Below, in pieces: positions 12,761 through 63,204 of a stretch of 64,000 nt of DNA (position 1 is the stretch's first letter; each line of letters opens with the position of its first letter). The stretch comes from Elusimicrobiota bacterium. Lineage in GTDB: Bacteria; Elusimicrobiota; Endomicrobiia; CG1-02-37-114; XYA2-FULL-39-19. The notes under the pieces are model-generated. The model had not been told where the DNA came from and made no database searches. It saw nothing but the letters and a program-made list of their open reading frames with translations. The stretch covers positions 9,047-73,046 of the forward strand of contig JAHIVV010000054.1 of NCBI GenBank assembly GCA_018816525.1, given 5' to 3'. A program made the translations under genes and the position numbers.

Positions 12761-12784
12761 TAACCTAAACGGGAGGTAACTTAT

Positions 12785-13210
12785 ATGAGTAAGAATGATG
12801 TTTCAGCTTGTCCAACAGGTCCCATAGTTTCAATGATTGCGCCCTTTGAAGATGGCCGGGGTTATATCCAGACGTTAGTAGACGGAGGAATACAGGCTAT
12901 CCAGGTCATCACCTCCAAAGCGAACACTGTCCGGGCTAACCACTACCATAAAGCAGATTCACACTTTATGTATGTAATAAAAGGCACAATGAAATATTTC
13001 CATCGCCCGGCAGGAGATAAGTCGGCCCCAAGTTGGTTATTGGTGAAGGCAGGCCAGATGGTCTTCACTCCGCCTTTAGTGGAACACGCAGTTGAATTCA
13101 CTGAAGACTCGGAATTTCTCAACATCACCGGAAAACCGCGGGACCAGGGTTCGTACGAAGATGACATAGTGCGAGTCGAACTCCATAAACTTTCGGTAAA
13201 AGGGGGCTGA
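12785..13210 (+). CDS. Cupin-fold NDP-4-keto-6-deoxyhexose isomerase/epimerase (FdtA/QdtA-like 3,4-ketoisomerase or RmlC-like)
   Basis: 141 aa small cupin (ANHYHKADSHFMYVIKGTMKYF), strong SD GGGAGG, positioned between a dehydratase and a C-methyltransferase. Confidence 0.5.
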   Translation: MSKNDVSACPTGPIVSMIAPFEDGRGYIQTLVDGGIQAIQVITSKANTVRANHYHKADSHFMYVIKGTMKYFHRPAGDKSAPSWLLVKAGQMVFTPPLVEHAVEFTEDSEFLNITGKPRDQGSYEDDIVRVELHKLSVKGG

Positions 13211-13214
13211 TTCA

Positions 13215-16311: not shown

Positions 16312-17367
16312 ATGGCTCAAATATTTTATTTGATAAAAAGAGTTACACGCCTAATTATTAAGCCTTTTAAGGAAAAGATACAAGTAAAATCACTGATAAA
16401 AGAGTTCGTTCTTTTAGTGAAACAATTTCTCCATTATAACATTTCAAGCCTTCCCCGCAGTATTCATATGGAGTTAACAAGTAAATGTAACCTAGCCTGT
16501 AAAGCGTGTTACAGGACCGGCGTTTTGAAAGAATATATGAATTTAAACACAACTATGACGCTATCCGACCTTAAAAAGTTAATTGGAAAGTACGACCCAA
16601 AAAAAGTTAAATCCATTGTTTTGTCGGGAGGTGAAAACCTTCTTCACCCTGACTTTTTCGAAGCTTTGGATATATTGAGAGACAAATTTACAAAAAGCCT
16701 TCTTTTACTTGCAACTAATGGTGTTATTCTTTCGAATGATAAAAACAAATTGGAAAAAGTATGCAAATCTTCGATAAATTCTATCCAGGTTTCGCTTCAT
16801 GGAGCAACACAGGAAACTATTGATTTATTGCAAAAAGGTATTAATTTACAAAAAGTTCTGGAAATAATTGAATTTATAACAAAAAATTCTAAAATAAATG
16901 TGTCTGTTAACTACGTAATTCAGGAAGAAAATGTAAACGAAATTTCAAAATTTCTTGATATAGTTTCGGAATTTAACGTCAAAGATGTTTCATTACATCC
17001 AATGAATTATGCCGGTCATAGAGAAGATGCAGTAAATTACATCGATTTATGGGAAAAAATGAATTTAGAAAAAATATTATCTAATGCCTATAAGAAAGCA
17101 AAATTTCTTGGTATAAATATTTGGCCCTTTAGCACTATGTGTACAAGTGTTTTTGATGTTGATGTTTTAACAGCCAGCGGCGATGTATTACCTTGCTGGG
17201 GACAGTATCTCGTTAAAAAATACAAAATTGGCAATGTTTTTCAGCAAAAGCCTGACGAAATACGTAAAAGTAAAGAAATTAAGGAATTAAAAAAATCGAT
17301 TCTTTCGGGACGCAGCAATAACGAAATGTGCAATTCCTGCTGGGCTAATGGCAAAAAATATATATGA
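16312..17367 (+). CDS. Radical SAM / SPASM-domain protein
   Basis: CNLACKACYRTG (CxxxCxxC) near the N-terminus; GGENLLHPDF; a C-terminal Cys-rich auxiliary-cluster region (LPCWGQY...CNSCWANG). Confidence 0.75.
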   Translation: MAQIFYLIKRVTRLIIKPFKEKIQVKSLIKEFVLLVKQFLHYNISSLPRSIHMELTSKCNLACKACYRTGVLKEYMNLNTTMTLSDLKKLIGKYDPKKVKSIVLSGGENLLHPDFFEALDILRDKFTKSLLLLATNGVILSNDKNKLEKVCKSSINSIQVSLHGATQETIDLLQKGINLQKVLEIIEFITKNSKINVSVNYVIQEENVNEISKFLDIVSEFNVKDVSLHPMNYAGHREDAVNYIDLWEKMNLEKILSNAYKKAKFLGINIWPFSTMCTSVFDVDVLTASGDVLPCWGQYLVKKYKIGNVFQQKPDEIRKSKEIKELKKSILSGRSNNEMCNSCWANGKKYI

Positions 17368-24129: not shown

Positions 24130-25365
24130 ATGCAGTTTAGTAAAGAATTACATAATTCAAGGAATATAGTTTATTGGATATTCATAACCTTGTTTTTCCT
24201 GGTCTCTCTTGTTCCAATGAATTACTTACCTTTCAAAATAGGAGAAATACCATTCCACTACATTTTTACCAGCGGGCTTGTCCTTTTGCTAATTTCATTA
24301 TCCTGGCTTACAGAAAAAAGAATAACATTATTTGATAAGTGGCTTTTATTTGTAATTGCGGGTTTTTGTCTAAGTTTAATTTCGAGTGTTGACAGGCTTT
24401 ATACTATTCGCAGTATTGGCAGTTTCATTTTTAGGGGTTTAGGAATAGCTTTTATTTCACAACGGATTTTAAAAAATAATGGAAAAACGACATCGTCGGC
24501 TATTTTGATTTGTGCTTCCCTTGTTTGCATAGTGGGTTTAATAGAGTTCTTTTTCCATTGGAACCCATTTTCTAAGTTCCCGAGTTTTCAAACACACTGG
24601 GCTTTGTCTCCAAGGTCCGGGATGGCAGGTACAATGGGACATCCTCTTGTTTTGTCCGGCTATTTAGTATTGGTGTTACCTATTGCAATATGGTACATCC
24701 GGGGGCGAAATATAATACTCAAGTCAATTCCTCTTCTTTTAATTTCATTAACAATTTTCTTTTCTTTCTCACGCAGTTCGTGGATTTTAAGTTTGATGCT
24801 AATGTTTTTTTACTTTTACACAGAAAAAAATGAATTTTTTATTAGAAAATGGAAGTTGCTGTTGTCATTAATAATCATTATAACCTTCTTTTTCTTATTT
24901 ACGCATTCGAAGCCATTGTTTATAGAACGGTTTGGTTTCCAAAGTTTAAAATCTAGTATTGTGCACTCTCACCGTTCTGCTTCATACAATACAACCTGGA
25001 CTGTATTAAAAAAATACCCTTTTTTTGGAGTAGGCCTGGGTAATTACCCAATAGCACATGACTTCTATAGAGCTGAGGATTCTACAGAATATTTAAAAAC
25101 CCCTGATAACGTCTTTCTCAGATTTTTATGCGAAATAGGGCTTATAGGTACTGCTATGTTTATAATGTTCATTATTTATTGGCTTCACGTATTATGGAAA
25201 CATCGAATGAATTCCTATATATTTGCCATATTTTTGGGCCTTTCATTTTTCATGTTAAATCAATTAGTAGCAGATTTATTTTATTGGCTGGCGCCTCAAT
25301 TTACTTTTTGGATGCTTTTGGGTATCGCAGTGGGAAATTTAAAAAATAATAAAACCATAATTTAA
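24130..25365 (+). CDS. O-antigen ligase / polymerase family membrane protein (Wzy_C domain)
   Basis: Polytopic. FSFSRSSWILSL resembles the Wzy_C/WaaL signature. A large periplasmic loop precedes the final TM helices. Confidence 0.55.
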   Translation: MQFSKELHNSRNIVYWIFITLFFLVSLVPMNYLPFKIGEIPFHYIFTSGLVLLLISLSWLTEKRITLFDKWLLFVIAGFCLSLISSVDRLYTIRSIGSFIFRGLGIAFISQRILKNNGKTTSSAILICASLVCIVGLIEFFFHWNPFSKFPSFQTHWALSPRSGMAGTMGHPLVLSGYLVLVLPIAIWYIRGRNIILKSIPLLLISLTIFFSFSRSSWILSLMLMFFYFYTEKNEFFIRKWKLLLSLIIIITFFFLFTHSKPLFIERFGFQSLKSSIVHSHRSASYNTTWTVLKKYPFFGVGLGNYPIAHDFYRAEDSTEYLKTPDNVFLRFLCEIGLIGTAMFIMFIIYWLHVLWKHRMNSYIFAIFLGLSFFMLNQLVADLFYWLAPQFTFWMLLGIAVGNLKNNKTII

Positions 25366-28537: not shown

Positions 28538-28605
28538 CTGAGTCAGACGAAATCCCAAAATTCGTTTCCACATTAATTTTGGGACAGGAATTGGATGACA
28601 AACTT

Positions 28606-29976
28606 ATGAAAAAACATTCTCACACACTTTTTATATGTGTTCTCTTCGCAGGCGACCTTTTACTGCTCTATTTTTCATTTGTGCTTGGATATTACATAAG
28701 GTTTTTTTGGGCGTCAATTATAACAGTATTTCCTCCTTTTAAAGGCATACCTAACTTTACCATCTACAATGAGTTATTTAAACTCGCGATTTTAGTCTGG
28801 CTGCCTGTATTTATATTTGTGGGATTTTATAAGAAAAAAATTGAATCAGACCTGGACGACCTCGTAAATGTTGTTAAAGGTACAGTCATAGCCACAATCC
28901 TTTTAATGGCTATTACTTTTGTTTACAGGGACGTGGAATTTTCAAGATTTGTTATTGGGATAATCTGGGTTATCAGCAGTATCCTGATATTCATCTGGCA
29001 CTTAACATCAAAATACGTTTTTCAACTCATTATAACTCACTCGCAAAATGTCCTCATTATCGGCAAAATCGAAGAAATTGAAATTCTTAAAAAAACCTTT
29101 CGAAGAAACAGGCACATTAAACCGTTTTTTTTATTTGACTATAAAAACGAAGAAAACATTTTTAACCTGATTACGCAAAAAGACATTAACGAAATACTGG
29201 TGATGAGTTCTCTGTTAAGCAAACAGGAACTGATAGATCTGTCTGATAAATGCGAGGAAAAGAAAATAGAGCTAAAAATAGTCCCAGACCTGCTACAGTT
29301 AAAACTCGGAGAAATACTTATTGACGACTCTTTAGGAATTCCGGTATTTCGTTTGAAATCGCCGTCTTTAGTGGGGGCAAATTTTTATTACAAAAAAATG
29401 TTTGATATATTCCTTTCTATAGTATTTTTGTCTTTCTCAATAGTTCCACTTATTTTCATTGCTATATTTATAAAACTTGATTCAAAAGGAAAAATTCTTT
29501 ATTCTCATCAACGAATGGGTTATAAAGGCAGAGTTTTTAATTTCTTTAAATTCAGAACCATGATGATAAATGCCGACGAAATGCTTGAAAAAATAAAACA
29601 TCTCACTGAACGAAAAGGCCCCGTATTTAAAATGAAAAATGACCCAAGGATTACGAAAATCGGAAAATTTTTAAGAAGATACAGTATCGATGAAATCCCT
29701 CAGATAATAAATATCCTTAGAGGAGAAATGAGTTGGATAGGGCCCAGGCCCCAGGTATTATGGGAAGCTAAAGCCTATGATAATTGGGCCAAGAGGCGCT
29801 TAAGCGTACTGCCGGGAGCAACTGGGCTTTGGCAGGTTTCAGGAAGAGCTTCTCTCAGTTACGAAGAGATGATAGAACTTGATATTTTTTACCTGGAAAA
29901 TTGGTCCTTAGGGCTTGATTTAAAAATATTGTTAAAAACTTTGCCGGCAATTTTCAGCCGAAAAGGAGCGTATTAA
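28606..29976 (+). CDS. Polyprenyl-phosphate sugar phosphotransferase (WbaP/EpsL-type initiating transferase, Bac_transf domain)
   Basis: N-terminal TM helices, a central CoA-like region, and a C-terminal sugar-transferase domain (FKFRTMMINADE...RPQVLWEAKAYDNWAKRRLSVLPGATGLWQVSGR). The ORF track starts at a TTG at 28579, which lies inside the hairpin; the ATG at 28606 is preferred. Confidence 0.8.
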   Translation: MKKHSHTLFICVLFAGDLLLLYFSFVLGYYIRFFWASIITVFPPFKGIPNFTIYNELFKLAILVWLPVFIFVGFYKKKIESDLDDLVNVVKGTVIATILLMAITFVYRDVEFSRFVIGIIWVISSILIFIWHLTSKYVFQLIITHSQNVLIIGKIEEIEILKKTFRRNRHIKPFFLFDYKNEENIFNLITQKDINEILVMSSLLSKQELIDLSDKCEEKKIELKIVPDLLQLKLGEILIDDSLGIPVFRLKSPSLVGANFYYKKMFDIFLSIVFLSFSIVPLIFIAIFIKLDSKGKILYSHQRMGYKGRVFNFFKFRTMMINADEMLEKIKHLTERKGPVFKMKNDPRITKIGKFLRRYSIDEIPQIINILRGEMSWIGPRPQVLWEAKAYDNWAKRRLSVLPGATGLWQVSGRASLSYEEMIELDIFYLENWSLGLDLKILLKTLPAIFSRKGAY

Positions 29977-32909: not shown

Positions 32910-34079
32910 ATGAGTTTTGTTAGAAAAGATTTCTTTTTTACATCTGAATCAGTAGGCGCCGGCCATCCGGACAAAGTTTGCGACAAAGTTTCTGATGCAG
33001 TATTGGATGATGTTTTAAGGCAGGATCCAAAAGGGCGGGTAGCCTGTGAAACATTTATAACCTTGGGCCTGATCATTGTCGGGGGCGAAATAACCACAAA
33101 AGCTTATGTGGATGTCCCAAGCATTGTAAAAAGAGTAGTCAAAGATATCGGATATAATGATCCAAAATATGGTTTTGATTACAAGAACTGCGGGATATTA
33201 AACGGAATTCACTCTCAATCACCGGACATTTCCCAGGGAGTTGACACAGGCGGCGCCGGAGACCAGGGAATAATGATTGGTTATGCAAATAATCAGACTG
33301 AAGAACTAATGCCTATGCCGATTACTTTAGCCCATAAACTTATCAAAAAAACTAATGAAGCAAGGACTTCCGGCCTTCTTTCTTATTTAGGCCCTGATTG
33401 CAAATCCCAGGTGACTGTTGAATATGTCAACGGCAAACCGGCAAGAGTTGACGCTGTAGTCATTGCATGCCAGCACACCGAAGATGTTTTAGATAAAACC
33501 GGAAAACACATGTCTGAAAATGCAAAAAAACAAATGAAAAAGGAAATAATTGACCCCATAATCGGCAAAATGGCTGATTCAAAAACAAAATATTTTATTA
33601 ACGCAACAGGAAAATTTGTTATCGGCGGGCCTGCATCAGATACAGGTATGACCGGGAGAAAAATTATTGTCGATACTTATGGCGGTTGGGCTCAGCACGG
33701 CGGCGGAGCATTTTCAGGGAAAGACCCGACCAAAGTTGACAGGTCAGCAACTTATATGGCAAGGCATATTGCAAAAAATATTGTCGCAGCGAAGCTTGCT
33801 GATGAATGCCTGGTAGAACTTTCATATTGTATCGGTGTTGCCGACCCTATTTCAATCATGATTGATACCCATAACACAGGTGAAATCAGCGATGAAAGGC
33901 TTGAGAAAATCGTCAGGGACGTGTTCCCACTAACACCCAGGGGTATAATTGATTACCTCAAACTTCGCAGGCCCATATACTGCAAAACAGCTGCCGGCGG
34001 GCATTTTGGCAGAAAAGAAGCTGACTTTCTGTGGGAAAAAACCAACAAAGTTGATGAATTAAGAAAAGCAGCGAAATAA
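32910..34079 (+). CDS. metK: S-adenosylmethionine synthetase
   Basis: [31 protein letters not shown] and the [10 protein letters not shown]-loop, the canonical bacterial MetK motifs. 389 aa. Confidence 0.9.
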
Positions 34080-34102
34080 ATTTAAAAAATAATTAGGAGA
34101 AA

Positions 34103-35427
<1,325 letters not shown>

Positions 35428-35511: not shown

Positions 35512-38500
35512 ATGAAAAAAATAATCTTCTTCCTTTTGGCCATTCTTGCAGTCAATCTTCTCTTACCTGCAATTTCTTTTTCTTCTGCAATTCAAACATC
35601 TACAGAAACAACAACCGGTGTCTGGAATTCAACTTACACTTGGTCCGGCGGTTTAATCCCTGGGCCCGATGATGAAGTAACTGTAAGTGAAGGGTTTTTA
35701 TTGTTAATAGATACTGCTGCTGAATGCAAAGCCATTTCTCTTACACTGGATCAATACGCAACTGTTGAATTCCATCCTTTTGGAGTAAATGCATCAACTC
35801 TTAATGTACGAGGGGATATCACTTTTGGCGATGGCGCTGCTATGACCATGAACGGTTCAAATGCAAATGACAGGATGCTATTAGACGCTAACGACTTAGT
35901 TTTAAACGGCGATGGCTCTTCCTTAACATCCCTGCTCAACACTACACAAACCCAAAATCTTACAATCAATGCCAGAGACATTAAATTAGGTGCTGATAAA
36001 TCAGCGCTTTTTAGAATCACAGCAAGCACAAAATCGATTATTAATTTGGCATGCCGTGATATATCGCTTGCCAATTGTGTTAATTACGGTAATTTTTTTG
36101 ATATAGAGATCAATGCGCCAGATACTACTCTTAATTTAGCTGCCGGACAAATAACTGTAGGGACTTTGAATGATCTTTACATTATGGTGAACTCACAGGC
36201 AAATAAGTGTTTAGCAAACATTTCTTTTGCAAAACTAACTACAAATTCTGAAGGAGTTTTTGATGCCAGGTGCTCTGTATTATCCAGCACGATGTCACTT
36301 TCTCTAAACGGTTCACTATCACCTGCCGCAGTTAGCAACAATGGTACTTTACGTTTAATCGGGACCAATCCAAGCGCAAACCCAAAACCCGATTCTGAAA
36401 ATACGAGAAGAAATATCTCTTTTACAGGTGTTTATGGTGACTCTTATATGCAATGCTATGGTTATACTGACTTTGAAAATGCTTCTATTACTCGTTTTGG
36501 TAAATTCAGAGCAGAAAATAAATATGGTATCTGCTTTTTCAATATAGACGGTGCGATAGATCAAAAAATTTTCCTTTATAACTGCGATATCTCTTCATCA
36601 ATTGATACTGGTATTTATCTTTCCGGGTGTACAAGGCTCAATAGGCAATGGTATGACCAGGGTATATTATCCTGCATAATAAGAGGAAACGGATATAACG
36701 GTATTTGGCTTGATTCAACACAAAAAAGCGAAATTAGAAATTGCAAGATTTATAATAACATTGGAGCAAATATCGGTTACGGAATTCATCTGACAAACAT
36801 ATCAAATGAAAACACAATCAAGAACAATGATGTTTATGCAAATAAAATTATAGGAATTTACCTTAATGGTTCTGATAAAAACCTTATTTCTAACAATCTT
36901 GTCCACGACCAACTGCCGGGTTACGGACAAGAGGGTATTTATCTTTATAACTCCAAAAAAAATATAATTGCCGGGAATAGCTGCTATAGCAACCCTGTTC
37001 ACGGAATTGCTCTAGAGAACGGTTCAAATCTTAACTACGTTGTAGGGAACAATTTCTCAAAAAATCTTGACGGAGGAATGAGAGTCCGTTACAATGCCAA
37101 CGGCAATATATTTATATCCAATGTGAGCTCAGAAAATGCCAGGACCGGTTTTACTTCTCATTCTTCAGTAGATACCTTTTGTGCAAATGAATTATTTCAA
37201 AATAATACAATTGGGGACATCTATATAGAAGGTGAAGAAAATATCGGTTATATTTCTCAACTCTGGATGAAAAATTGTTTATTCAGGAGTACTGTTACCT
37301 TCACGAATACACCGGAAAAACAGGAGTTTACTAAAGAAAATTCATGGGTTATAAGCCAAAAACATAACGGAACAAATGGGTTAACAAGAGTTTGGGGACA
37401 ATTCTCAATACCCCAATCTGCCCATTCCTGGCATACATCCGATCTCCTGAAATTTGACTATAGCGAAAAGTCATACACAGGAAAATCTCACGGCTGGAAC
37501 AAAACTATAAATAATTATGATACACCTATGCTGAGATACGACGATGGAGGTGCTGACGGAGCCGGCATGCCTCCCTTAGGGTCTAATGACATTACATCAA
37601 TTACGCCAAGTTCGACAACAAAAACAGAGCTTTGGATATTAACCTATGAGTCATCAATAAACCGCTGGACGGTTTGGGGTTCAAGTTCGGGGATGCAGAC
37701 AAGGGGCGGCTCTGAAGGAAATGGTTTTGCTAAACCTGACTCCGATTATATCAGTGATAACGGAGAAATAAGATTCAGAATCACTCACCACTACTCTCCT
37801 GTTTCGCCGGGTGAAGAATATACTTTTGTTATTTTAGCAGACTCAAATGACCAAAACACACAAAAAAAAGTAGAACTGTGTGATTTTTCTGATCCTAACT
37901 ATATTGGTGCAAGCTTTACTAATAAAACTGGTGCTACGGTTGAGTTTATTGGTTTATCTACTGCCCCAACTCTTGTCACCAGAAAACTGGCCGAAGACGT
38001 TCCTGATACAAGTTTCTATTACGGTTTGACTTTAGGCGGCATAATAAACAAAATAAAATACACCGATTTGTCATTCCTTGACGGAAAAGGTCTATTCTTA
38101 AATGCTAAACCAGAAAATAATACAGAAAATATCCGTATTGAAAATCTTCTTCCTGGCACAACTTATTCAACCTACATATCTGTTTTGAATGTAACCGACC
38201 ATTACCTTGATTCAGTTTATATTGAAACAACTTCTGTAACCGGAATCTACAACGTAAGGGCTGATGGTTCCACTTTATACTTTAGGGATTACACGAGGCC
38301 TTTCCTGCAGGATAAATTGAGCATTGGTTCAGCCGTTTACTGGGATCCAACTCTTGTATGGAGCGGATTATCAGGTTTTACTGATGATGGCATTGACCCC
38401 AATAACGCTGACCAATCCAGCGCAAGAGAGTTCCAGGTAAAATATATTGACCGCGGGCTGGGAGCTAACGGGAATGCCCCTACTACAGTTCAGGTTTGGA

Positions 38501-40719
38501 TCGATTTTAATGATAACGACACGTATGAAACTTCTGAAAGAATTGGAATGAAATTAAAAACCGGTGTTGGCAATGACAACAATTATACAAATGGCGAAAT
38601 TTTTTACTGTATTATTTCCTCTATCGCTTACACCGGAGACGGTATACTTTCTTTCAGGTTTTATGCAACAAACCCTAATAGCATGACCATTTCTACATAT
38701 TCTTACAGCCTCTATAGCGTAAACAACAATGTAATGAGCACTTATGAAGCTTCCGGTACAGGGATTTCGATGAGTACTTTCACTATTAAAGGAACACCGC
38801 CAAGGATTACGATTGTTACACCTTCAACCGAACAAACAGGCATTGTACCTATAGCTTTTAATTTAATTGATGATAACAACAGGCCTGATCCATTTAATAA
38901 ATGTTCTGTAACGGTTGAATATCGCGACCCTTCCTCAAACACGTGGAAACCGGCTACAATAGGCGTTGGGTCTGAACCTACTACGGATCTGACTGCTGTC
39001 GTTTCACCCGGTATGCTGCATACCTTTATATGGGATTCTTCAACTGATTTAGCAAATAAAGATGTTTCAACTGCAATAAGAATAACCCCTTCAGGAGGAG
39101 ATGGAACTGGTTCAGGAGCCACTACCGGTTCGTTCTTTGTAGATAACATAATCGTATCCAAGCTCATTTTTATATCTTCTGAACAAGAATTGCGCTCCGG
39201 AGCTACCTCACAAATAATTACAATTCAAGGCCAGGATTCAGCAAACAATAAAGATGTGGATGCCAATATGTCAATCAGTTTATTGAGTACATCTACAAAT
39301 TATGCTTTCGTAAGTTCAACTGCTAATGTAACTATTACCAGTGCAACTATGGTTTCAGGTGAAGCAACTTTCAGGTATTGTGATGAACAAAGGGGAAACC
39401 CGACAATTGTTGTTTCTTATCCCGGACTCCAATCAGCCAGCCAGAGTTGGTGGATAACCAAAAATGTAAGCGCCCCCGGCTCTGCCTTGTCTATTACTGT
39501 CACTGATAGTGTAGTAGGCTCCTCTCTGGTTCCAGTCAATGTTACTGTAACATTGAAAGATTTGGACGGCAATCCCGTTGCCAGCAAAGATGTTACTATT
39601 TCTGTATCGGGAACCGACAATTATATAACTCAACCAACTGACAAAACAAATTCAAATGGCCAGGCTTTTGCCTCATTCTGGTCAACAAAAGCTGAAAGAA
39701 AAACAATTACAGCAACAGATATTACTGATAATATCATGATTGTTTCCAGCGCATCAATTAACTTTACTCCTACAAATGTAAACGGCAGTATTTCAACAGT
39801 AAGCATATCCAGCCAGACAGCGATACTGGGCAGTACTGTTACAGTTTATGTAACCTTGCTTGATATATATAGTAATCCTGTTCCCAACAAGCTTGTAAAT
39901 GTAAGTATTCTTCCGAATATAGCAGGGGATTTGCTTACTCTCTCAACAAACTATACTGACAATGCAGGTTTTATCAGAGCTGCAACACTGATGTGTGTGA
40001 GTGCCGGGCAAAGAATAATAAGCGCGCAAGACCAGTCGGATGTTTTACCTTTGACGTCTTCTGTAACCGTAACATTTACTTCTTTAAATGCCATTGATTT
40101 ATCGTCTCCTACGATTGTATCAGTTACTCCTTCAAGCGCCAGCACGCTTACTTCGGGCTTTACTCAAATCATTATCATTGCCTCAGATACCTTATCAGGT
40201 TTAAATTTATCATCTTCCACTATTGCATTGCTTCAAAATGGCACAGCAGCCGCAGGAACATTGTCCATAAGCGGCTCTAATAGCCTGGTTTATACTATAA
40301 CCGGCGAGGTGCAAAATGGTAACTACTCAATAACTGCGACAATCTATGATAATGCAAATAATTATTCCACTTTCAATTCAAGTTTCACCGTAAACATTCA
40401 GAACCCCGAACAAGTGTTTAAAACTCAATCTTACACCTATCCCAACCCAAGCACTGATGGAAATGTAAGGGTTAACTACAGCCTCCTTAATAACGCGACT
40501 AAAGTCACTCTAAAAATTTATAACATTATCGGAGAACTTGTCAGACAGGAAACATTGGATACAACTGTAGGCTCAAATAAAACGTATGTATGGGACTCAA
40601 AAAACCAGGATGGGGAATTGGTAGGAACAGGTGTATATATAATTAAACTGCTTGCAGAAATGGATTCTTCAACCAAGTATACTACGACAAAAAAACAAAT
40701 AGTGATAAAACGTAAATGA
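35512..40719 (+). CDS. Giant secreted surface protein with a signal peptide, parallel beta-helix (PbH1/NosD-like) repeats, multiple Ig-like (Big) domains and a T9SS-type C-terminal sorting domain
   Basis: N-terminal MKKIIFFLLAILAVNLLLPAISFSSA. Repeated N-rich beta-helix rungs (IRNCKIYNN..., IKNNDVYAN..., ISNNLVHD..., IIAGNSCYSN...). Repeated about 90-aa Ig-like modules (ITVTDSVVGSSLVPVNVTVTLKDLDGNPVASKDVTISVSG...). C-terminal about 80 aa (YPNPSTDGNV...KIYNIIGELV...GTGVYIIKL) matches the Por/T9SS CTD pattern. Confidence 0.7.
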   Translation: MKKIIFFLLAILAVNLLLPAISFSSAIQTSTETTTGVWNSTYTWSGGLIPGPDDEVTVSEGFLLLIDTAAECKAISLTLDQYATVEFHPFGVNASTLNVRGDITFGDGAAMTMNGSNANDRMLLDANDLVLNGDGSSLTSLLNTTQTQNLTINARDIKLGADKSALFRITASTKSIINLACRDISLANCVNYGNFFDIEINAPDTTLNLAAGQITVGTLNDLYIMVNSQANKCLANISFAKLTTNSEGVFDARCSVLSSTMSLSLNGSLSPAAVSNNGTLRLIGTNPSANPKPDSENTRRNISFTGVYGDSYMQCYGYTDFENASITRFGKFRAENKYGICFFNIDGAIDQKIFLYNCDISSSIDTGIYLSGCTRLNRQWYDQGILSCIIRGNGYNGIWLDSTQKSEIRNCKIYNNIGANIGYGIHLTNISNENTIKNNDVYANKIIGIYLNGSDKNLISNNLVHDQLPGYGQEGIYLYNSKKNIIAGNSCYSNPVHGIALENGSNLNYVVGNNFSKNLDGGMRVRYNANGNIFISNVSSENARTGFTSHSSVDTFCANELFQNNTIGDIYIEGEENIGYISQLWMKNCLFRSTVTFTNTPEKQEFTKENSWVISQKHNGTNGLTRVWGQFSIPQSAHSWHTSDLLKFDYSEKSYTGKSHGWNKTINNYDTPMLRYDDGGADGAGMPPLGSNDITSITPSSTTKTELWILTYESSINRWTVWGSSSGMQTRGGSEGNGFAKPDSDYISDNGEIRFRITHHYSPVSPGEEYTFVILADSNDQNTQKKVELCDFSDPNYIGASFTNKTGATVEFIGLSTAPTLVTRKLAEDVPDTSFYYGLTLGGIINKIKYTDLSFLDGKGLFLNAKPENNTENIRIENLLPGTTYSTYISVLNVTDHYLDSVYIETTSVTGIYNVRADGSTLYFRDYTRPFLQDKLSIGSAVYWDPTLVWSGLSGFTDDGIDPNNADQSSAREFQVKYIDRGLGANGNAPTTVQVWIDFNDNDTYETSERIGMKLKTGVGNDNNYTNGEIFYCIISSIAYTGDGILSFRFYATNPNSMTISTYSYSLYSVNNNVMSTYEASGTGISMSTFTIKGTPPRITIVTPSTEQTGIVPIAFNLIDDNNRPDPFNKCSVTVEYRDPSSNTWKPATIGVGSEPTTDLTAVVSPGMLHTFIWDSSTDLANKDVSTAIRITPSGGDGTGSGATTGSFFVDNIIVSKLIFISSEQELRSGATSQIITIQGQDSANNKDVDANMSISLLSTSTNYAFVSSTANVTITSATMVSGEATFRYCDEQRGNPTIVVSYPGLQSASQSWWITKNVSAPGSALSITVTDSVVGSSLVPVNVTVTLKDLDGNPVASKDVTISVSGTDNYITQPTDKTNSNGQAFASFWSTKAERKTITATDITDNIMIVSSASINFTPTNVNGSISTVSISSQTAILGSTVTVYVTLLDIYSNPVPNKLVNVSILPNIAGDLLTLSTNYTDNAGFIRAATLMCVSAGQRIISAQDQSDVLPLTSSVTVTFTSLNAIDLSSPTIVSVTPSSASTLTSGFTQIIIIASDTLSGLNLSSSTIALLQNGTAAAGTLSISGSNSLVYTITGEVQNGNYSITATIYDNANNYSTFNSSFTVNIQNPEQVFKTQSYTYPNPSTDGNVRVNYSLLNNATKVTLKIYNIIGELVRQETLDTTVGSNKTYVWDSKNQDGELVGTGVYIIKLLAEMDSSTKYTTTKKQIVIKRK

Positions 40720-41711
40720 AAAAATTTATACTGACTATACTCTCTTTAACTATTTTTTCAATTCTTGCAGCTGATTCTTTTGTTGTCGCGGAATCACCAG
40801 GGACCAGTACGGCTGTCTTCCTTAAATTAATACCTGGTGCCAGGCCGGCAGGTATGGGAAATGCATTTACTGCCATCTCTGATGATTCAAATGCCATCTA
40901 TACGAACTCAAGCGGCCTTATCCAGATTAAATCAATAAATATTTCGGCAACTCATATCTTGTTATTTGAAGATATTACCCATACATCAGTCAACCTTGCT
41001 TATCCTTCAGGCGCTAACACTTTTGGTTTGGGCATCAGTTATCTTTCAACGGGTGAAATCGAAGCCAGGGATTCGACAGGCTTGCTACTTGCAACAAATA
41101 ACTCGGTAAGCAATTCGGTAATCTCAGTTGCTTATACCAGAAAAATAGTGGATAATTTTGGCGTGGGCCTGACAGCAAAAACAATATCACAGAAATACGG
41201 ACTGTATTCAGGCAACGGTATGGCAACAGACGTTTCCGGAATTTATAAGTTCAGAATAAGCGAAGGCTACGTATCAGCAGGATTAGCTTTACAAAACCTG
41301 GGTTCTCCAATCACAATTGCAGATGTAGGAAATAGCCTTCCTACAATTACCAGATTAGGTATTGCTTACATACCTTCAAGCCGCTTTAAGATTGATGTCG
41401 ATGCAGATAAAACATCCGACAGCGCAATGAAAATATATTCCGGAATCGAATACATTTATAACAATTCCTTTGTTTTAAGAGCCGGGCATAACCAGCTTAA
41501 TAAAATATCCGGTACTGAAGGCATTTGCCTTGGTATCGGAACCAGGACTAACCTCGAAAAAGAAGCTTTGTGGGAAGAAGGGACCGTAGAAGAATCAAAA
41601 GAAGAGGGTTCTGAATTTGATTTTGACTACGCTTTAACTTCAAACTCGGAAGATTTAGGCTACACTCACCGCATATCTGTAACCTATAAATTTGGTAACA
41701 AATTCCATTAA
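40716..41711 (+). CDS. Outer-membrane beta-barrel protein of the FadL/PorV (LptO)-like family
   Basis: Signal peptide. N-terminal hatch motif SPGTSTAVFLKLIPGARPAGMGNAFTAISDDSNAIYTNSSGL resembles FadL/PorV. Alternating-hydrophobic beta-strand pattern, C-terminal aromatic (KF). Start overlaps the stop of the giant cargo gene (ATGA). Confidence 0.45.
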   Translation: MKKFILTILSLTIFSILAADSFVVAESPGTSTAVFLKLIPGARPAGMGNAFTAISDDSNAIYTNSSGLIQIKSINISATHILLFEDITHTSVNLAYPSGANTFGLGISYLSTGEIEARDSTGLLLATNNSVSNSVISVAYTRKIVDNFGVGLTAKTISQKYGLYSGNGMATDVSGIYKFRISEGYVSAGLALQNLGSPITIADVGNSLPTITRLGIAYIPSSRFKIDVDADKTSDSAMKIYSGIEYIYNNSFVLRAGHNQLNKISGTEGICLGIGTRTNLEKEALWEEGTVEESKEEGSEFDFDYALTSNSEDLGYTHRISVTYKFGNKFH

Positions 41712-57223: not shown

Positions 57224-59653
57224 TTATCTCAAATAATTCAATCTTTCCTGAGCTATTTGGTTTTTTGGGTCTAATTCAAGAACTTTTTGAAATGCTGACC
57301 TGGCATTTTCTTTATCGTTTTTTTGCGAATAAGCCAAACCCAAATTTACCCAAGAAGGCAAGTTGGATGGGCTGATAGTAACAGCTTGCTTGTACTCATT
57401 TATGGCTTCATCAACTTTACCTAAAGTAAAAAATGCATTGGCCAGGTAAAAACGGGCTTTGTAACTGTTGGGGGAAATCTCAACCAGTTGCTTGCATAAC
57501 TTAAGAACTTCCGGCCAATTCTTCTCATTTATTTTCTGCTCAGCTGCTTTTACCAATCTGTCATATTCAAGAATCGGTTCCGATTTTATTCCTGCTTTTT
57601 GCGATGCCACTTCCAGGTTGTGCCTTGCCATCTGAAATTCGGGATTTATTTCTACTGCCCGGCGATAGGCTTCAGCGGCTTTTTTGTTGTCGTTTTTCTT
57701 CGTATAGGCAAAACCAAGATTATTCCAAAAATCTATATTGTTCGGAAAAAAGAAAACAGCCCTTTCAAGAAGCGCAATGGCCCTATCAGGGTCTTTGTCA
57801 ATATTTATCAGAAATATGTTTCCGAGCGCAAAATATCCTTCCTGTGAAATAGGGTTGATGTAAAGCGCCTGAGTGTAATTGTTTAAAGCTTTTTCCATGT
57901 CACCCATTTGTGCATAAACTGTCGCAAGGTTAAAATGTATTTCGTCATAACCGCAATTGGCCGATAAAGCGTTGTAATAAGCCCAAAGAGATTTATCCCG
58001 CTGGCCTAATCTCGCGTAACAATTAGCAAGCTCATACTCGCTGTTAACTTCTTTGTTATTGAAGTGAGCTTTTTCCAAATAAGGAATAGCTGCCGCGACA
58101 TCTCCTTTTTTTGACATCTTGAAACCTTGAAAATAATTTATTTCGCCGAGAAAAAAATTATACCATTTGAAAATAAGAAAAAAGAAAAAAACAATAAGGA
58201 CTGCAAAAATACCCTTCGAAACAGAATTCAATCTGTATTCCTTAATTTTCCTCGTATCATCCATGCCAACCAGTGTGCCCATATTCCACCAATAAAGGAA
58301 CGCCGGCACGCAAAACTGGGTGGACACATTCCCGAATATATTATCAAGAAACATACCTGCGGTTCCGCTCAAAATACCGATAAATATTAATCTTTTGCTT
58401 TCCAAAAATGTGTTTTTGTAAAGATATATTCCATAAGCAAAAAATGAAACTAAAAACCATAAATAAAACGCTACGCCCAGGGTACCTATCTGGGACCAGT
58501 ATTCCAGAATTTCATCGTGAGCATTATTTGCATGAGTCCTAAAACCGCGATAAAGGTCATTAAACAGACTTTTACCCTGGTAAAAAGGGTAGTATAATTC
58601 AAATAAACCCCAGCCTTTGCCTAAAATTGGGTCGTCTTTTACCATCAGCCAGGCGCAGGACCAAATCATAATCCTCTGATGCATAGGACCGTATGAAGTA
58701 TTAGCCACATTTTCTATCTCTGTAATTCTTGATATCGGCGTTGAGCCGCCCAGGCTTCTGGGCCAGGTAAGAAAAGTGACTATGATCACGATAGTGATCG
58801 CAATTATCCATTTCTTTTCGCGCGCAAAAATCGATTTGCTTTTTTCTTTTCTGTAGTCTTTCAGCAGGAACAAACCTATTACCGTAAAAGCCGTAAATAA
58901 ACCTACCCAGGATGACCTGGTCATTGTAGCTACGATGGAGCAAAAATATATTTCAAGCATTCCCAGAAAAAGTATTTTTTTTGCCGCGGAAATCTGGGAA
59001 AGATAAGTCATTAAAATAATGGGGAAAAGCATAACCAGGTAGGATGACATAAAGTTAGGGTTTCCAAACGTAGAAACGGGACGGCCGCCAAAAGGGTTAA
59101 GCGCCTTAGGCCAGACAGGCTCAATTTCCATGTATTGCAAAACACCGTAAAACGCGGCAACAAAACCTACGAAAAACAATGTGTTTATAATTGTGTTAAA
59201 AAACTTTGCGCGTTCCTGCCTTTCATACATGATAGGAATTAACATCGCAGGTATCCAATACGCCATAAGCAAATTAACAAGAGTAAAAATAAACTTTTTA
59301 AAACCTTCAGAAAAAATGCTTGAATAAAGATAGTTAATTCCAAAACCCGGAAGGTTTTTTCCGTCTTCAATTATTTGTTTTATCAGATAAGGCTGATTTG
59401 AAAAATAAGCATAGAGCCAGGTGAACACGGCAAAACCGGTAAAAACTACCAAGGGCAGCTCAATCGGGCTCCATGACCACTTGAAACTTTTTTTCATCAA
59501 AGCGTCAACCAAATACAAAATCCACAAAATTAATATTACGACATTTAATAAAAAAATCTGGAAAAAATAAGGATTCCTTGTGAGGTCAGTGAAGAAAATA
59601 ATAGGCGGGAATATAAGAAGGAATAGTATTATGTACCTGAAATATTTGTTCAT
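57224..59653 (-). CDS. Polytopic membrane protein with an O-antigen-ligase-like (Wzy_C) domain and C-terminal TPR repeats
   Basis: 809 aa. About 12 TM helices. TMTRSSWVGL Wzy_C-like motif. The C-terminal ~300 aa contain multiple 34-aa TPR units (WAYYNALSAN..., ALNNYTQALYINP..., AAEAYRRAVEINP...). Confidence 0.6.
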   Translation of the reverse strand: MNKYFRYIILFLLIFPPIIFFTDLTRNPYFFQIFLLNVVILILWILYLVDALMKKSFKWSWSPIELPLVVFTGFAVFTWLYAYFSNQPYLIKQIIEDGKNLPGFGINYLYSSIFSEGFKKFIFTLVNLLMAYWIPAMLIPIMYERQERAKFFNTIINTLFFVGFVAAFYGVLQYMEIEPVWPKALNPFGGRPVSTFGNPNFMSSYLVMLFPIILMTYLSQISAAKKILFLGMLEIYFCSIVATMTRSSWVGLFTAFTVIGLFLLKDYRKEKSKSIFAREKKWIIAITIVIIVTFLTWPRSLGGSTPISRITEIENVANTSYGPMHQRIMIWSCAWLMVKDDPILGKGWGLFELYYPFYQGKSLFNDLYRGFRTHANNAHDEILEYWSQIGTLGVAFYLWFLVSFFAYGIYLYKNTFLESKRLIFIGILSGTAGMFLDNIFGNVSTQFCVPAFLYWWNMGTLVGMDDTRKIKEYRLNSVSKGIFAVLIVFFFFLIFKWYNFFLGEINYFQGFKMSKKGDVAAAIPYLEKAHFNNKEVNSEYELANCYARLGQRDKSLWAYYNALSANCGYDEIHFNLATVYAQMGDMEKALNNYTQALYINPISQEGYFALGNIFLINIDKDPDRAIALLERAVFFFPNNIDFWNNLGFAYTKKNDNKKAAEAYRRAVEINPEFQMARHNLEVASQKAGIKSEPILEYDRLVKAAEQKINEKNWPEVLKLCKQLVEISPNSYKARFYLANAFFTLGKVDEAINEYKQAVTISPSNLPSWVNLGLAYSQKNDKENARSAFQKVLELDPKNQIAQERLNYLR

Positions 59654-59659
59654 TTCTCT

Positions 59660-62113
59660 CTACTTTTTCGGGGGAGACATAACTCGAAGCAAGTCCGGAT
59701 CTTGGGGATTAATTTCATGAATTCTCTGCCACATTTTCAAAGCTTCCTGAGGTTGGCCTCGTTTATTGTAAATTACTGCTAAATTTTTCAGAGCAGATAC
59801 ATTGTCTTTTCTAATTGTGGATGCTTTCAAATAATATTCTTCGGCCTTCTTTGCATCTCCAGTCATATATTTAAGGTTACCCAAATTAACATAGGTTTCT
59901 GCATATTCATAATTCCTTCTTTGGCCCCAATCTTCCCAGTAAAAACAATGGTAATTACCTTTATGAATTTCGCATTCAGGCGGCACGCTTTCTGCCGGCC
60001 TGCCAATTTGTTTGGAAACCCATTCTTTTTCATCGCTCCCTGGCTGCGTTAGGGATTCAGCCATGTACAAATGCCTCCAATAGGTTTCTTCAGCCTTCTT
60101 TAAATCTCCCATCTGGATATATACATATGCCAAACGGTAATAGTTTTGGGCGAAAATGGGGTCGATCTGGTGGTACATTTCAAATCTTTTTATTGATTCT
60201 TTCCATGCTTCCCTGGCCTTGTCCATTTGATTATTTGACCTGTAAGTTTCACCCAATTTCAAGTACAAAAGGCCTGCCTGATGGTGTGATTGGACGTAAT
60301 TTGGAGCCAGTGTCCAGCAATCCTGGTATTTGCTTATGGACCTTTCTACATCGATTCTTCCTTTATTGCCCAAGTTTATGCCTGACCAGGCCAAATCAGT
60401 TTCATGGTCACCCCATTCCGGATGATACTCGCGGTTGAGCATCCATCTGTCATTGAAAACATTGCCCATGAAATAGTGGGCCATAATAAAACCATAATTT
60501 TTTTGAGCAACAATGTTATAATTGCTCAACGCATCCGACCATTGCCCATTTTTTGAATGGAAAATGGCAATGTTATGATGCACGTCAGCAATAAAATACC
60601 CCCTGAAAACACCTTCAAAAGGGACTTTCACGCCAAAAATAGTTGCCCCTGTTATTCCTACTATAGAAAGTATTATTGCGATCGTCCCTGTAAGGTAATC
60701 GGTTATCAAGATTATTATGAACTGTATAACCCTGCGTGCAATTTTTGGTATAGGGTTGCGAAGGGGCAAAATTGGCTGGGATGCCTGCATAGGCAGCGGA
60801 TTATTTATAGTTAATGTGTTTATCAAACCTACGAGAAGCCACATAAAGATACCGGACGAAACAAATCTTAAAGAAACACACATCAGGTTATGCGATAACA
60901 TTCCTATAAATGCGGAAAGAAAACCAAGCATATAAAATGCTCTCGGGTCAGTTACTATTTTGGTTGCTTTGCCTTTTGCATTGGGCGGAGGTAAATCAAC
61001 TGCAGAAAATATCCTCAGATTTTTTAACCCGGAATTTATACACAAAACTATTATCCATAAGAAAATAGCAAAACCAACTATTCCTTCATCATACCAAACT
61101 TCCAGGTATTCGTTTTCCGGATGGTCTGATTCGGTATTATGTTTTGCTTCGATATAAAATATCTGCGGCCTGCGGAATGCGGGATAAGTCACATAAAATG
61201 TACCAATACCTGTACCTAATATCGGATTTGTATTAATCATTTCCCAGCAGGACATCCAGGTATAGACCCTGAATTTTACAGAATCAGTTCTTTTCATTAT
61301 CTGATCATATACGGCATAAGCGCAGATCAGCAAAACTAAAGAAACAATTATTGATACAATCTTTTTTATGTTATGTTTTTGCAGATGGGCAAAATGCAAT
61401 GCGTATAGAATGCAAAATGCAATAAATCCGGAAGTGAAGCCGATCCAGGCGCCTTTTGATGAAGTAAAAATTGCGTTGAATGCCGTCATCAAAAACAAGA
61501 TACCAAAAAACGGCTGCCGTGTTTTAAAAAACATTGCCAGGCATATAGGGCCTAAAACTACAAGAAAATCACCGTAAAAGTTAGGGTTTCCGAAAGTCGA
61601 GAATATTCTGGTACCGAATGCGCCTCTCCAAATAAACGGGTCCAGGCCTCTTTCAGACATGCCCTGAGGAAAATACCTGGTATCGAGAAACTGTATTATT
61701 CCATAAAAGGTTGCAACGAAACAGGCAAAAAACAGCCAACCCAATAATCTTTTTATTTTTTCTTCCGAGTTAAACTCTTTCATTATTATAAGAGCTATGC
61801 CGAAATAAATAACTTTACGGATTAGCTCCATGCCGCTTGCATATTGAAGAGGTGAGCGCAGATGTGAAATCGTATTGGAAAGCAACACGAGTAAAATGGG
61901 TATTATTACTACGAGGTTCTTTTTGAAGTAGTTTGTGTCATATTCTTCTATTAACTTTATGAGCCAGAGCATTAAAATTAACGCTCCGCCGATTTGGATC
62001 AAAGTAATTTTAATCTGGCAGGAATCATAAGTGCGCAGATAAAAAGCCAGGGAAACCGAGAAATAAAGGATGGGCAAAAAATGCTTGATTATTTTTTCAA
62101 AGGTTTTTGTCAT
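59660..62113 (-). CDS. Polytopic membrane protein with an O-antigen-ligase-like (Wzy_C) domain and C-terminal TPR repeats. A tandem paralog of the preceding gene.
   Basis: 817 aa. Same architecture as its neighbour. TSSKGAWIGF motif. TPRs (EEYYLKASTIRKDN..., ALKMWQRIHEINPQD). Confidence 0.6.
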   Translation of the reverse strand: MTKTFEKIIKHFLPILYFSVSLAFYLRTYDSCQIKITLIQIGGALILMLWLIKLIEEYDTNYFKKNLVVIIPILLVLLSNTISHLRSPLQYASGMELIRKVIYFGIALIIMKEFNSEEKIKRLLGWLFFACFVATFYGIIQFLDTRYFPQGMSERGLDPFIWRGAFGTRIFSTFGNPNFYGDFLVVLGPICLAMFFKTRQPFFGILFLMTAFNAIFTSSKGAWIGFTSGFIAFCILYALHFAHLQKHNIKKIVSIIVSLVLLICAYAVYDQIMKRTDSVKFRVYTWMSCWEMINTNPILGTGIGTFYVTYPAFRRPQIFYIEAKHNTESDHPENEYLEVWYDEGIVGFAIFLWIIVLCINSGLKNLRIFSAVDLPPPNAKGKATKIVTDPRAFYMLGFLSAFIGMLSHNLMCVSLRFVSSGIFMWLLVGLINTLTINNPLPMQASQPILPLRNPIPKIARRVIQFIIILITDYLTGTIAIILSIVGITGATIFGVKVPFEGVFRGYFIADVHHNIAIFHSKNGQWSDALSNYNIVAQKNYGFIMAHYFMGNVFNDRWMLNREYHPEWGDHETDLAWSGINLGNKGRIDVERSISKYQDCWTLAPNYVQSHHQAGLLYLKLGETYRSNNQMDKAREAWKESIKRFEMYHQIDPIFAQNYYRLAYVYIQMGDLKKAEETYWRHLYMAESLTQPGSDEKEWVSKQIGRPAESVPPECEIHKGNYHCFYWEDWGQRRNYEYAETYVNLGNLKYMTGDAKKAEEYYLKASTIRKDNVSALKNLAVIYNKRGQPQEALKMWQRIHEINPQDPDLLRVMSPPKK

Positions 62114-62129
62114 AATCTGTTGTTAAATG

Positions 62130-62201
62130 AGCCGGGAGTGGGGATTGAACCCACGGCCTACGGTTTACGAAACCGTTGCTCTACCACTGAGCTATCCCGG
62201 C
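62130..62201 (-). tRNA. tRNA-Thr (anticodon CGT)
   Basis: Reverse complement folds as acceptor GCCGGGA/TCCCGGC, D-arm GCTC-AGTGGTA-GAGC, anticodon stem ACGGT/ACCGT with loop TTCGTAA, T-arm GTGGG-TTCAATC-CCCAC. Confidence 0.8.
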
Positions 62202-62245
62202 AAAGAGAAATACTGGGTAGCCTGATTATTTTTTTTAATATAAAA

Positions 62246-62317
62246 TGCCGCGGAAGAGAATCGAACTCCCGACGCCAGGTTTTTCAGACCTGCGCTCTAC
62301 CACTGAGCTACCGCGGC
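62246..62317 (-). tRNA. tRNA-Phe (anticodon GAA)
   Basis: Reverse complement: acceptor GCCGCGG/CCGCGGC, D-arm GCTC-AGTGGTA-GAGC, anticodon stem CAGGT/ACCTG with loop CTGAAAA, T-loop TTCGATT. Confidence 0.8.
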
Positions 62318-62349
62318 ATTTTATTTTACCTTTTTAATAAAGAACTAAA

Positions 62350-62584: not shown

Positions 62585-62824
62585 TTAGCAACCTCCTTTA
62601 TTCTTTCTTGAAAGCATACTTGCTATAACCCCGATTACTGTGCCGAAAATACCCGTGCTGCTTGTTGTAAAGTTATTTAAAGCTCTTACAAATTTCTCTA
62701 ACTGGAACAAAACATTGCTTATTCTTAATAGAACCAGGCCGATAATTAAAGCTATGAAAAGGTTAGTCAAGGCTATAATGACAACACAAATCACCAAAAT
62801 TGTACCCATTGCTCCACTAATCAT
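62585..62824 (-). CDS. Small membrane protein (DUF948-like)
   Basis: 79 aa with an N-terminal TM helix followed by an amphipathic region. Adjacent and coupled to ytxH, as ytxG-ytxH are in Firmicutes. Confidence 0.35.
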   Translation of the reverse strand: MISGAMGTILVICVVIIALTNLFIALIIGLVLLRISNVLFQLEKFVRALNNFTTSSTGIFGTVIGVIASMLSRKNKGGC

Positions 62825-63204
62825 AATACCTCCCTTGTTTTTAATATTTTTTCAATCTTTTCTTTCATCGACGATATACTGAACGGTTTTCCAATAAAAT
62901 CTTCAGCACCAAAAGTCTTTAAATCATCAACTGTTTTTTTGTCAGCATAAGCCGTAAGCATGATTACAGGAATATTATTAAGCCCGGGCGCGCGTTTTAA
63001 CTCATGGCATAGTGAAATTCCATCCATGCCCGGCAGGCTGACATCTAAAAGAACCAGGTCAGGCTTATTTTTTGCTATTGCTTCAAAAAATAACTGGCCG
63101 TCCGGAATAACTTCTACCTCATACCCGGATTTTTCAAGTTCACCCCTTAACATCTCCTGAATGCCAATATCATCATCAACTAATGCGATACGTTTTTTTG
63201 TCAT
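62821..63204 (-). CDS. Single-domain response regulator (CheY-like receiver)
   Basis: LVDDD acidic pocket, phospho-acceptor D in LVLLDVSLPGMDG, T in IMLTA, K in IGKPF. 127 aa, no output domain. Confidence 0.8.
   Translation of the reverse strand: MTKKRIALVDDDIGIQEMLRGELEKSGYEVEVIPDGQLFFEAIAKNKPDLVLLDVSLPGMDGISLCHELKRAPGLNNIPVIMLTAYADKKTVDDLKTFGAEDFIGKPFSISSMKEKIEKILKTREVL

Follow-up and report, generated by a model that had tools for sequence, protein, structure and literature searches.

Tandem Wzy_C–TPR membrane proteins of Elusimicrobiota as candidate periplasmic glycan transferases

We analyzed a 64,000-nt stretch of DNA from an Elusimicrobiota bacterium (GenBank assembly GCA_018816525.1, contig JAHIVV010000054.1, positions 9,047 to 73,046; hereafter the window) and studied two adjacent genes, A (57224-59653) and B (59660-62113), each encoding a membrane protein that joins a Wzy_C domain to a C-terminal tail of tetratricopeptide repeats (TPRs). 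The two proteins are very probably periplasm-facing transferases of lipid-linked glycans, of the type represented by WaaL and PglL, with the TPR tail as a fused module for binding an acceptor or a partner. The single most likely case is that the acceptor is a protein or peptide, which would make A and B TPR-guided O-oligosaccharyltransferases (O-OTases); we place this a little below an even chance. To our knowledge, only four O-OTase classes are recognized, all from Proteobacteria-type systems; the architecture of A and B falls outside these classes and is fixed across the whole phylum. Bacterial O-OTases serve as tools for conjugate vaccines and as markers of general protein glycosylation. 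If the proposed function is true, a modular TPR domain would choose the acceptor, which would amount to a new and potentially re-engineerable mode of substrate specification, and the pair would provide a first handle on the surface glycobiology of a poorly studied phylum that includes free-living members as well as insect- and rumen-associated symbionts.

Domain content, fold, and topology

An earlier note on this DNA had described two adjacent same-strand genes of one architecture, and we found the open reading frames (ORFs) at exactly the positions it gave, with its motifs TRSSW at residues 245-249 of A and SSKGAW at residues 218-223 of B. The Wzy_C domain that it had proposed was detected by profile search in both proteins, at 58.8-60.1 bits in A and 75.4-77.6 bits in B against a gathering cut-off of 31.7 bits (Pfam PF04932), and was the sole Pfam match on either membrane domain even at E<=10. 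TPR families matched the two proteins with 77-125 bits (TPR_1, above threshold, with 124.7 bits in A and 77.0 bits in B), and the models for PgaA, BcsC, and PrsT were among the TPR matches, these three being sub-threshold. Among NCBIfam models, the only non-TPR match was IctB (TIGR00947), reaching 99.0 bits over model positions 37-421 of 425 in B and 65.4 bits in A, below its cut-off of 366.4 bits. No non-glycan family claims the proteins: IctB is sub-threshold, and its own label of bicarbonate transporter is discredited and no longer held (PMC7861388).

A and B aligned nearly from end to end, tails included, with 22% identity (BLASTP, E=4e-31), and judged by this alignment they are true but ancient paralogs. 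As the alignment spans the TPR tails, the fusion would be older than the duplication. Searches with the membrane domains returned 497 homologs for B, nearly all of them 730-820 aa long with Wzy_C and TPRs, and 415 for A; taking both sets, nearly all homologs were 660-850 aa long and of the same composition. Their annotations did not go beyond 'O-antigen ligase family protein' or 'tetratricopeptide repeat protein', and those homologs with names came from metagenome-assembled genomes (MAGs) of Elusimicrobiota and from one cultured species, Endomicrobium proavitum; the top homologs, 100% identical, belonged to an 'Elusimicrobia bacterium' MAG. A scan of species-representative genomes gave 527 relatives, the best 80 of which were all from Elusimicrobiota, and an exhaustive HMMER search with the membrane domain of A yielded 6,132 representative clusters with E<=1e-3, of which 121 had E<=1e-30. 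Among relatives of 20-40% identity, Wzy_C was found in 60 of 60 and TPRs in ~49 of 60, indicating that the fusion is old and stable. The combination is not categorically new, being already generically annotated in the databases and having a Gram-positive precedent.

Searches of the Protein Data Bank (PDB) with the single sequences of the membrane domains gave no match. A profile of both domains matched only WaaL of Cupriavidus metallidurans (7TPG/7TPJ, E=6.4e-11), and the match to 7TPG began at the 'TR' motif and ended at residue 402 of 413, the last helix of WaaL. Using family alignments, we modeled B in full length (pLDDT 88.8, pTM 0.88) and the membrane domain of A alone (pLDDT 92.7, pTM 0.93) with AlphaFold2. 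In both models, the core comprised 12 helices, of which the 9th and 10th were connected by a large loop, and was followed by a 13th helix that starts at residue 477 in A and spans residues 457-484 in B; the approximately 12 transmembrane (TM) helices of the earlier note had to be revised to 13, a WaaL-like core of 12 and one extra. In Foldseek searches, the membrane domain of A matched WaaL first (7tpg_B, E=7.6e-6, TM-score 0.59) and then the SEDS polymerases FtsW and RodA, while the full-length model of B matched only TPR superhelices such as those of SPY and OGT. The B protein of the window carries an insertion of ~24 aa after or within TM13 (60620-60690, residues ~475-498) that most B orthologs lack; in the AlphaFold2 model, this region forms one continuous kinked helix and a short beta hairpin.

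The catalytic loops of WaaL are periplasmic and, given the even number of helices in the core and the one extra helix, the TPR tails are predicted to be periplasmic rather than cytoplasmic, the location on which the earlier note's proposal depended. The positive-inside rule fits an N-in topology for both proteins: the inside loops of A had 21 lysines and arginines per 84 residues and the outside loops 4 per 56, and the counts for B were 23 per 112 and 9 per 76, respectively. WaaL ends after TM12 and has no further domain, whereas A and B, at ~12% identity to it, have TM13 and, beyond it, a TPR solenoid of ~300 aa. An extra helix and a periplasmic C-terminal domain past a WaaL-like core are features of the PglL/PglS type, and PglS has been modeled with a large periplasmic C-terminal domain in this position (PMC12800693); the corresponding domain of A and B has a TPR fold and not that of Wzy_C_2.

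Conservation of active sites, TPR tails, and gene order

Residues R215, R288, and H338 are important in Escherichia coli WaaL and are conserved in PglL as R224, R298, and H349 (PMC3643930). We aligned E. coli WaaL to hidden Markov models (HMMs) of the two families, setting the register by a conserved E...G..G helix and the helix starts of the AlphaFold2 models. In A, the three residues correspond to R246, R327, and H379, each invariant in 86 of 86 orthologs, and the predicted active site is of the canonical ligase type. B has K220, R282, and E333, each invariant in 84 of 84 orthologs, and departs from the WaaL triad: E333 occupies the position of H338, and at the position corresponding to WaaL H336, two residues before it, 83 of the 84 orthologs have a histidine (H331). 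These substitutes do not vary and are chemically competent (Lys in place of Arg, and Glu with a neighboring His), which suggests that the putative active site of B is under selection and is a fixed variant, not a decayed one. Within B, conservation is highest in the periplasmic loops, and an invariant periplasmic loop with the sequence FGNPNF is common to both families.

Each tail contained ~7-8 TPR-like helix pairs, agreeing with the 6-8 repeats counted previously, and the AlphaFold2 model of B shows ~15 TPR-type helices at residues 502-812. In A, the mean column conservation of the tail (0.56) equaled or exceeded that of the membrane domain (0.54), and the three membrane-proximal repeats were the most conserved of the tail (0.64-0.73). 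The invariant residues N537, Y540, E541, N544, D570, E571, and N575 fall on positions 2, 5, 6, and 9 of helix A, which we take to be the positions lining the concave groove of a TPR, and they would thus line the concave face of the solenoid. The tail of B is less conserved (mean 0.47); residues 520-553 and 588-621 form conserved blocks, and variable insertions occur at two sites. A conserved groove by the active site argues that the TPR tail binds a conserved ligand; a peptide, a glycan, and a partner protein would all be compatible with the pattern.

The HMMs of A and B separated the two families cleanly, with median scores of 639 vs. 116 and 132 vs. 667. We examined gene order in 84 Elusimicrobiota loci, 10 of which were too short to judge the presence of A. 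A B-type gene was found in all 84, and in 36 it was directly followed by an A-type gene on the same strand, typically with a spacing of –4 to +10 nt, that is, with 4-nt overlaps or gaps of <10 nt. Another 38 loci, in each of which the sequence downstream extended for 2.5 kb or more, had B without an adjacent A; they were mostly from Endomicrobium, Endomicrobiellum, and rumen lineages and included the complete genome of E. proavitum. B is the core gene and A is accessory. We also considered A and B as an obligate heteromer and rejected the idea, as the 38 loci, that of E. proavitum included, have B with no A next to it. A divergent A-like protein was found in an Elusimicrobiales MAG, and a loss of A from the B-only lineages can therefore not be asserted. 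In E. proavitum (CP009498.1, locus L001, 12306-18336), the place that gene A has in other genomes is taken by a complete operon for F-type ATP synthase, which separates B from YebC-RuvC-RuvA-RuvB.

Both proteins are conserved phylum-wide at 40-80% identity. The genes beside the pair differed among the contexts examined (Ruv genes, efflux pumps, histidine biosynthesis), and none of these contexts was a glycan locus. B is kept in high-quality endosymbiont genomes of 1.2-1.4 Mb belonging to Endomicrobiellum, and many members of this genus are reported, in a genus-level statement, to lack key lipopolysaccharide (LPS) genes (PMC11257099).

Donor, acceptor, and alternative functions

From the domain content, fold, topology, conservation, and synteny, we infer the following donor, acceptor, and catalysis. 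A and B would be inner-membrane enzymes with a Wzy_C domain in a GT-C_B fold, the 12-helix catalytic core presenting its active-site loops to the periplasm and the 13th helix recrossing the membrane to place the TPR solenoid on the same side. The donor would be an undecaprenyl-pyrophosphate (Und-PP)-linked glycan that a pathway of the Wzx/Wzy type, like that of the window, makes and flips. This glycan would bind at the conserved Arg/Lys residues and be transferred en bloc to an acceptor that the membrane-proximal TPRs keep in their conserved groove, by a logic as in WsfB, OGT, or TMTC. Of the two, A would be the enzyme with the canonical triad and B the universally retained copy with a Lys/Arg/Glu(+His) site.

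A plausible source of the donor, judged by its gene content, is a glycan locus at ~0.5-31 kb of the window, on the strand opposite to the pair. Its polyprenyl glycosylphosphotransferase could start a lipid-linked glycan and thereby a potential donor for A and B. The locus also encodes a third Wzy_C protein, which matched the profile of the pair with 98.5% probability (hhalign), ended at profile position 427, and carries an Asp aligned with WaaL H338 (R/R/D). This protein is probably the polymerase of the locus, and as it is the natural candidate for that step, a ligase-type step would be left for A and/or B. The earlier note had suspected a ligase-like function rather than polymerization, and four lines of evidence lean toward it: the R/R/H triad of A, the phylum-wide conservation, the position outside glycan loci, and the separate TPR-less Wzy_C protein. 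Its further suggestion of protein O-glycosylation is partly supported, the ligase-type part gaining support and the protein acceptor being a candidate only, with PglL_A and Wzy_C_2 absent and an acceptor gene not linked.

A protein acceptor is favored by the PglS-like extra helix and periplasmic domain, the conserved position unlinked to glycan genes, the TPR groove, and the likeness to WsfB and to OGT and TMTC; the retention of B in the 1.2-1.4 Mb endosymbionts, with LPS genes scarce in many members of their genus (PMC11257099), points the same way. PglL and PglS share with the pair a Wzy_C core with the same triad and an encoding away from glycan loci; the pair differs in giving no match to PglL_A and Wzy_C_2, in the TPR type of its C-terminal domain, and in having no pilin or other acceptor gene next to it. 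The O-OTases TfpO and TfpM are also without PglL_A and Wzy_C_2 (PMC12645811). The genes of the pilin-specific TfpO, TfpM, and PglS adjoin a gene for a pilin or pilin-like substrate, an adjacency that A and B do not have. The only literature precedent that we found for Wzy_C with TPRs in protein glycosylation, likened here by its description only, is WsfB, the predicted S-layer O-OTase of Paenibacillus alvei, with Wzy_C and a C-terminal TPR motif (PMC2943079); unlike the pair, it belongs to a Gram-positive host in which glycans are O-linked to tyrosine, and its gene is part of the S-layer glycan cluster. OGT, SPY, and the eukaryotic TMTC1-4 offer an analogy only: in these, protein substrates are selected by a TPR superhelix to which the glycosyltransferase is joined, and the TPRs of OGT and SPY, with Asn-rich positions on the concave face, were the top structural matches of the tail, whereas the catalytic folds are unrelated (GT-B; GT-C_A) and sugars are transferred one residue at a time from nucleotides or dolichol phosphate.

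Several results weigh against a protein acceptor. Profiles for PglL_A (PF15864) and Wzy_C_2 (PF11846) gave no match on the membrane domains even at E<=10, and the best structural relative of A and B is an LPS ligase, not an O-OTase. WaaL and O-OTases are not separable by sequence (PMC3643930, PMC12645811), and periplasmic TPR proteins are known as scaffolds of polysaccharide export (PMC9601211). B is without the essential histidine and one arginine of the triad. In the window and the loci scanned for prepilins, no acceptor gene was linked to the pair; a prepilin-type N-terminus was absent from the window and occurred nearby in 1 of 87 loci.

The scan for pilins had been prompted by secretins near two distant relatives of A, and with its essentially negative outcome a pilin linkage of the pair is at most a weak lead. 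The distant A-like relatives adjoin a secretin gene in loci L086 (1441-10969) and L087 (3188-7689), the former with an MshE/T2SSE-type (PilB-type) ATPase as well, and in an Elusimicrobia locus (L065, 6985-7368) a true prepilin (GGFTLMELVV...) is encoded ~2 kb downstream of A. In the family of Endomicrobiellum, pilins are the only appendages (PMC11257099). A connection to type IV pili is a weak hint.

The closest rival is that A and B are WaaL-type O-antigen or glycolipid ligases that transfer the glycan to lipid A-core or another envelope glycolipid and whose TPR tail, instead of selecting substrates, docks to Lpt, outer-membrane, or peptidoglycan components; we consider this rather unlikely. 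WaaL genes typically lie outside O-antigen clusters. By sequence, WaaL is the one relative with a solved structure, and it also gives the best fold match, sharing the Wzy_C domain, the GT-C_B fold, the periplasmic catalytic loop, and, in A, the full triad. No other ligase-type Wzy_C gene was seen in the window, the third one having no histidine, and Elusimicrobiota are diderms with LPS genes (PMC11257099). Set against this are the 12 TM helices of WaaL with no C-terminal domain, compared with the extra helix and the conserved 300-aa periplasmic domain fixed phylum-wide; the maintenance of two paralogs, one of which has K/R/E(+H) in place of the triad; and the persistence of B in Endomicrobiellum, where key LPS genes are missing from many members at the genus level (PMC11257099). 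Were the pair LPS ligases with a docking domain, they would be a modest architectural variant.

It is quite improbable that A and B are glycan polymerases or export scaffolds, in which Wzy_C polymerizes and the TPRs guide the polymer to an outer-membrane exporter in the manner of AlgK, BcsC, PelB, and PgaA. Wzy polymerases of O-antigen and exopolysaccharide are usually locus-encoded and highly variable, and they are without the essential histidine; the pair is conserved over 84 genomes, unlinked to glycan loci, fused to TPRs, and flanked in the window by tRNAs and the housekeeping genes for YebC and Ruv. The glycan locus already has a Wzy_C protein of its own, and within the window the pair has no linked gene for an exporter. 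What speaks for polymerization is that the Pfam domain Wzy_C covers these polytopic polymerases too, that SEDS polymerases were the next-best folds after WaaL, and that export models appeared among the sub-threshold TPR matches, TPR scaffolds of this kind being known (PMC9601211).

An IctB-like role of B and perhaps A other than en bloc transfer, for example as a regulatory or structural envelope protein with a degenerate site, is highly doubtful: IctB of cyanobacteria is the best non-TPR curated match, nearly over the whole model in B, is likewise conserved within one phylum, and has an 'NPNL' clade signature (PMC4594306) that FGNPNF resembles through the motif NPN[LF], and B has Glu and Lys for the essential His and Arg, but the scores of 99 and 65 bits are far under 366, IctB has no TPR tail, and the substituted residues of B are invariant and chemically competent within the most conserved loops of the protein.

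Returning to TPR-guided protein glycosylation, the pair could represent a fifth class of Wzy_C oligosaccharyltransferase in which a TPR groove, instead of PglL_A and Wzy_C_2, chooses protein acceptors and in which B is the ancestral, near-essential general glycosylase with an IctB-related Lys/Arg/Glu site. Taken jointly, with all its parts, this proposal is unlikely. The invariant site of B and its affinity to IctB provide a link to the 25-year-old question of IctB function and, if the joint proposal were true, solving the function of B could explain IctB too.

Genomic surroundings and the glycan locus

The earlier description of the pair as lying beside housekeeping genes and outside the glycan operon was borne out. 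Downstream on the same strand are genes for YebC, RuvC, RuvA, RuvB, and a deacetylase-like protein, and directly upstream of B are tRNA-Thr and tRNA-Phe. The end of tRNA-Thr(CGT) is 15 nt upstream of the B start codon, with tRNA-Phe beyond it (62129-62318, minus strand), and B may be cotranscribed with the tRNAs. The region upstream of B showed no convincing promoter or Shine-Dalgarno sequence, and promoter and terminator scans performed no better than on shuffled sequence. The short spacer between the B stop and the A start (Table 1) points to translational coupling within an operon. A single-domain response regulator of ~120-135 aa is encoded just upstream of B and A in the window (62821-63204, minus strand) and again in two divergent genomes (L002, 7274-7639; L003, 5381-5785).

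Table 1. Positions of the gene pair, its domains and predicted catalytic residues, and two proteins of the glycan locus in the window
Feature	Position	Strand	Description
Gene A	57224..59653	-	809 aa; Wzy_C membrane domain and TPR tail; accessory paralog with canonical triad
Gene B	59660..62113	-	817 aa; Wzy_C membrane domain and TPR tail; phylum-wide core copy
Spacer from B stop (TAG) to A start (ATG)	59654..59659	-	6 nt
B membrane domain	60662..62113	-	aa 1-484; 13 TM helices; TM1-12 WaaL-like core, TM13 at 457-484
B Wzy_C domain	61058..61498	-	aa 206-352; includes the periplasmic catalytic loop
B variant catalytic residues (predicted)	61115..61456	-	K220 61454-61456, R282 61268-61270, H331 61121-61123, E333 61115-61117
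B periplasmic TPR tail (predicted)	59660..60610	-	aa 502-817; ~15 helices; variable insertions at 554-587 and 690-723
A membrane domain	58154..59653	-	aa 1-500; 13 TM helices; TM13 from 477
A Wzy_C domain	58460..58951	-	aa 235-398
A canonical WaaL/PglL triad (predicted)	58517..58918	-	R246 58916-58918, R327 58673-58675, H379 58517-58519
A periplasmic TPR tail (predicted)	57224..58141	-	aa 505-809
Third Wzy_C protein	24130..25365	+	411 aa; Pfam 66.8 bits; ends at TM12; no TPR
Polyprenyl glycosylphosphotransferase	28579..29976	+	Pfam Bac_transf 210 bits; TIGR03025 367.7 bits vs. cut-off 295.55

Besides the two proteins in Table 1, the glycan locus contains sugar-nucleotide enzymes, ~9 glycosyltransferases, a flippase-like ORF with 12 segments, and methyltransferases of the S-adenosylmethionine (SAM), radical-SAM, and B12 types. 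Two polytopic ORFs at 3769-5241 (plus strand, 490 aa, ~12 hydrophobic segments) and 6179-7594 (plus strand, 471 aa, ~9 segments) had no Pfam or NCBIfam match and are candidates for divergent flippase- or polymerase-like proteins. The methylation genes include a B12-binding radical-SAM protein (8787-10151), a radical-SAM/SPASM protein (16312-17367), and a sugar C-methyltransferase (13215-14459), all on the plus strand, as well as several SAM methyltransferases, with SAM synthetase and S-adenosylhomocysteine hydrolase at 32910-35427; together, they suggest a heavily methylated or otherwise unusual sugar. The G+C content in 12001-16000 climbs to 0.48 and 0.41, compared with ~0.33 in the surrounding glycan locus. 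The same segment contains a 455-nt gap (12760-13215) as well as the genes (13215-15412) for C-methyltransferase and oxidoreductase, and it may be a horizontally acquired cassette.

The 1735-aa 'adhesin' of the window (35512-40719, plus strand) carries Beta_helix/NosD, Big_1, and a C-terminal region resembling FlgD_ig/Por_Secre_tail (24.7 bits, just below the cut-off), and the gene overlapping it (40716-41711, plus strand) encodes a PorV/PorQ-family protein (NCBIfam, 154 bits vs. a cut-off of 90). By these domain matches, the two are a cargo-plus-shuttle pair in the style of the type IX secretion system. Proteins with CHU_C tails are encoded a few kilobases upstream of the A/B pair in the two divergent genomes, L002 and L003, that share the response regulator.

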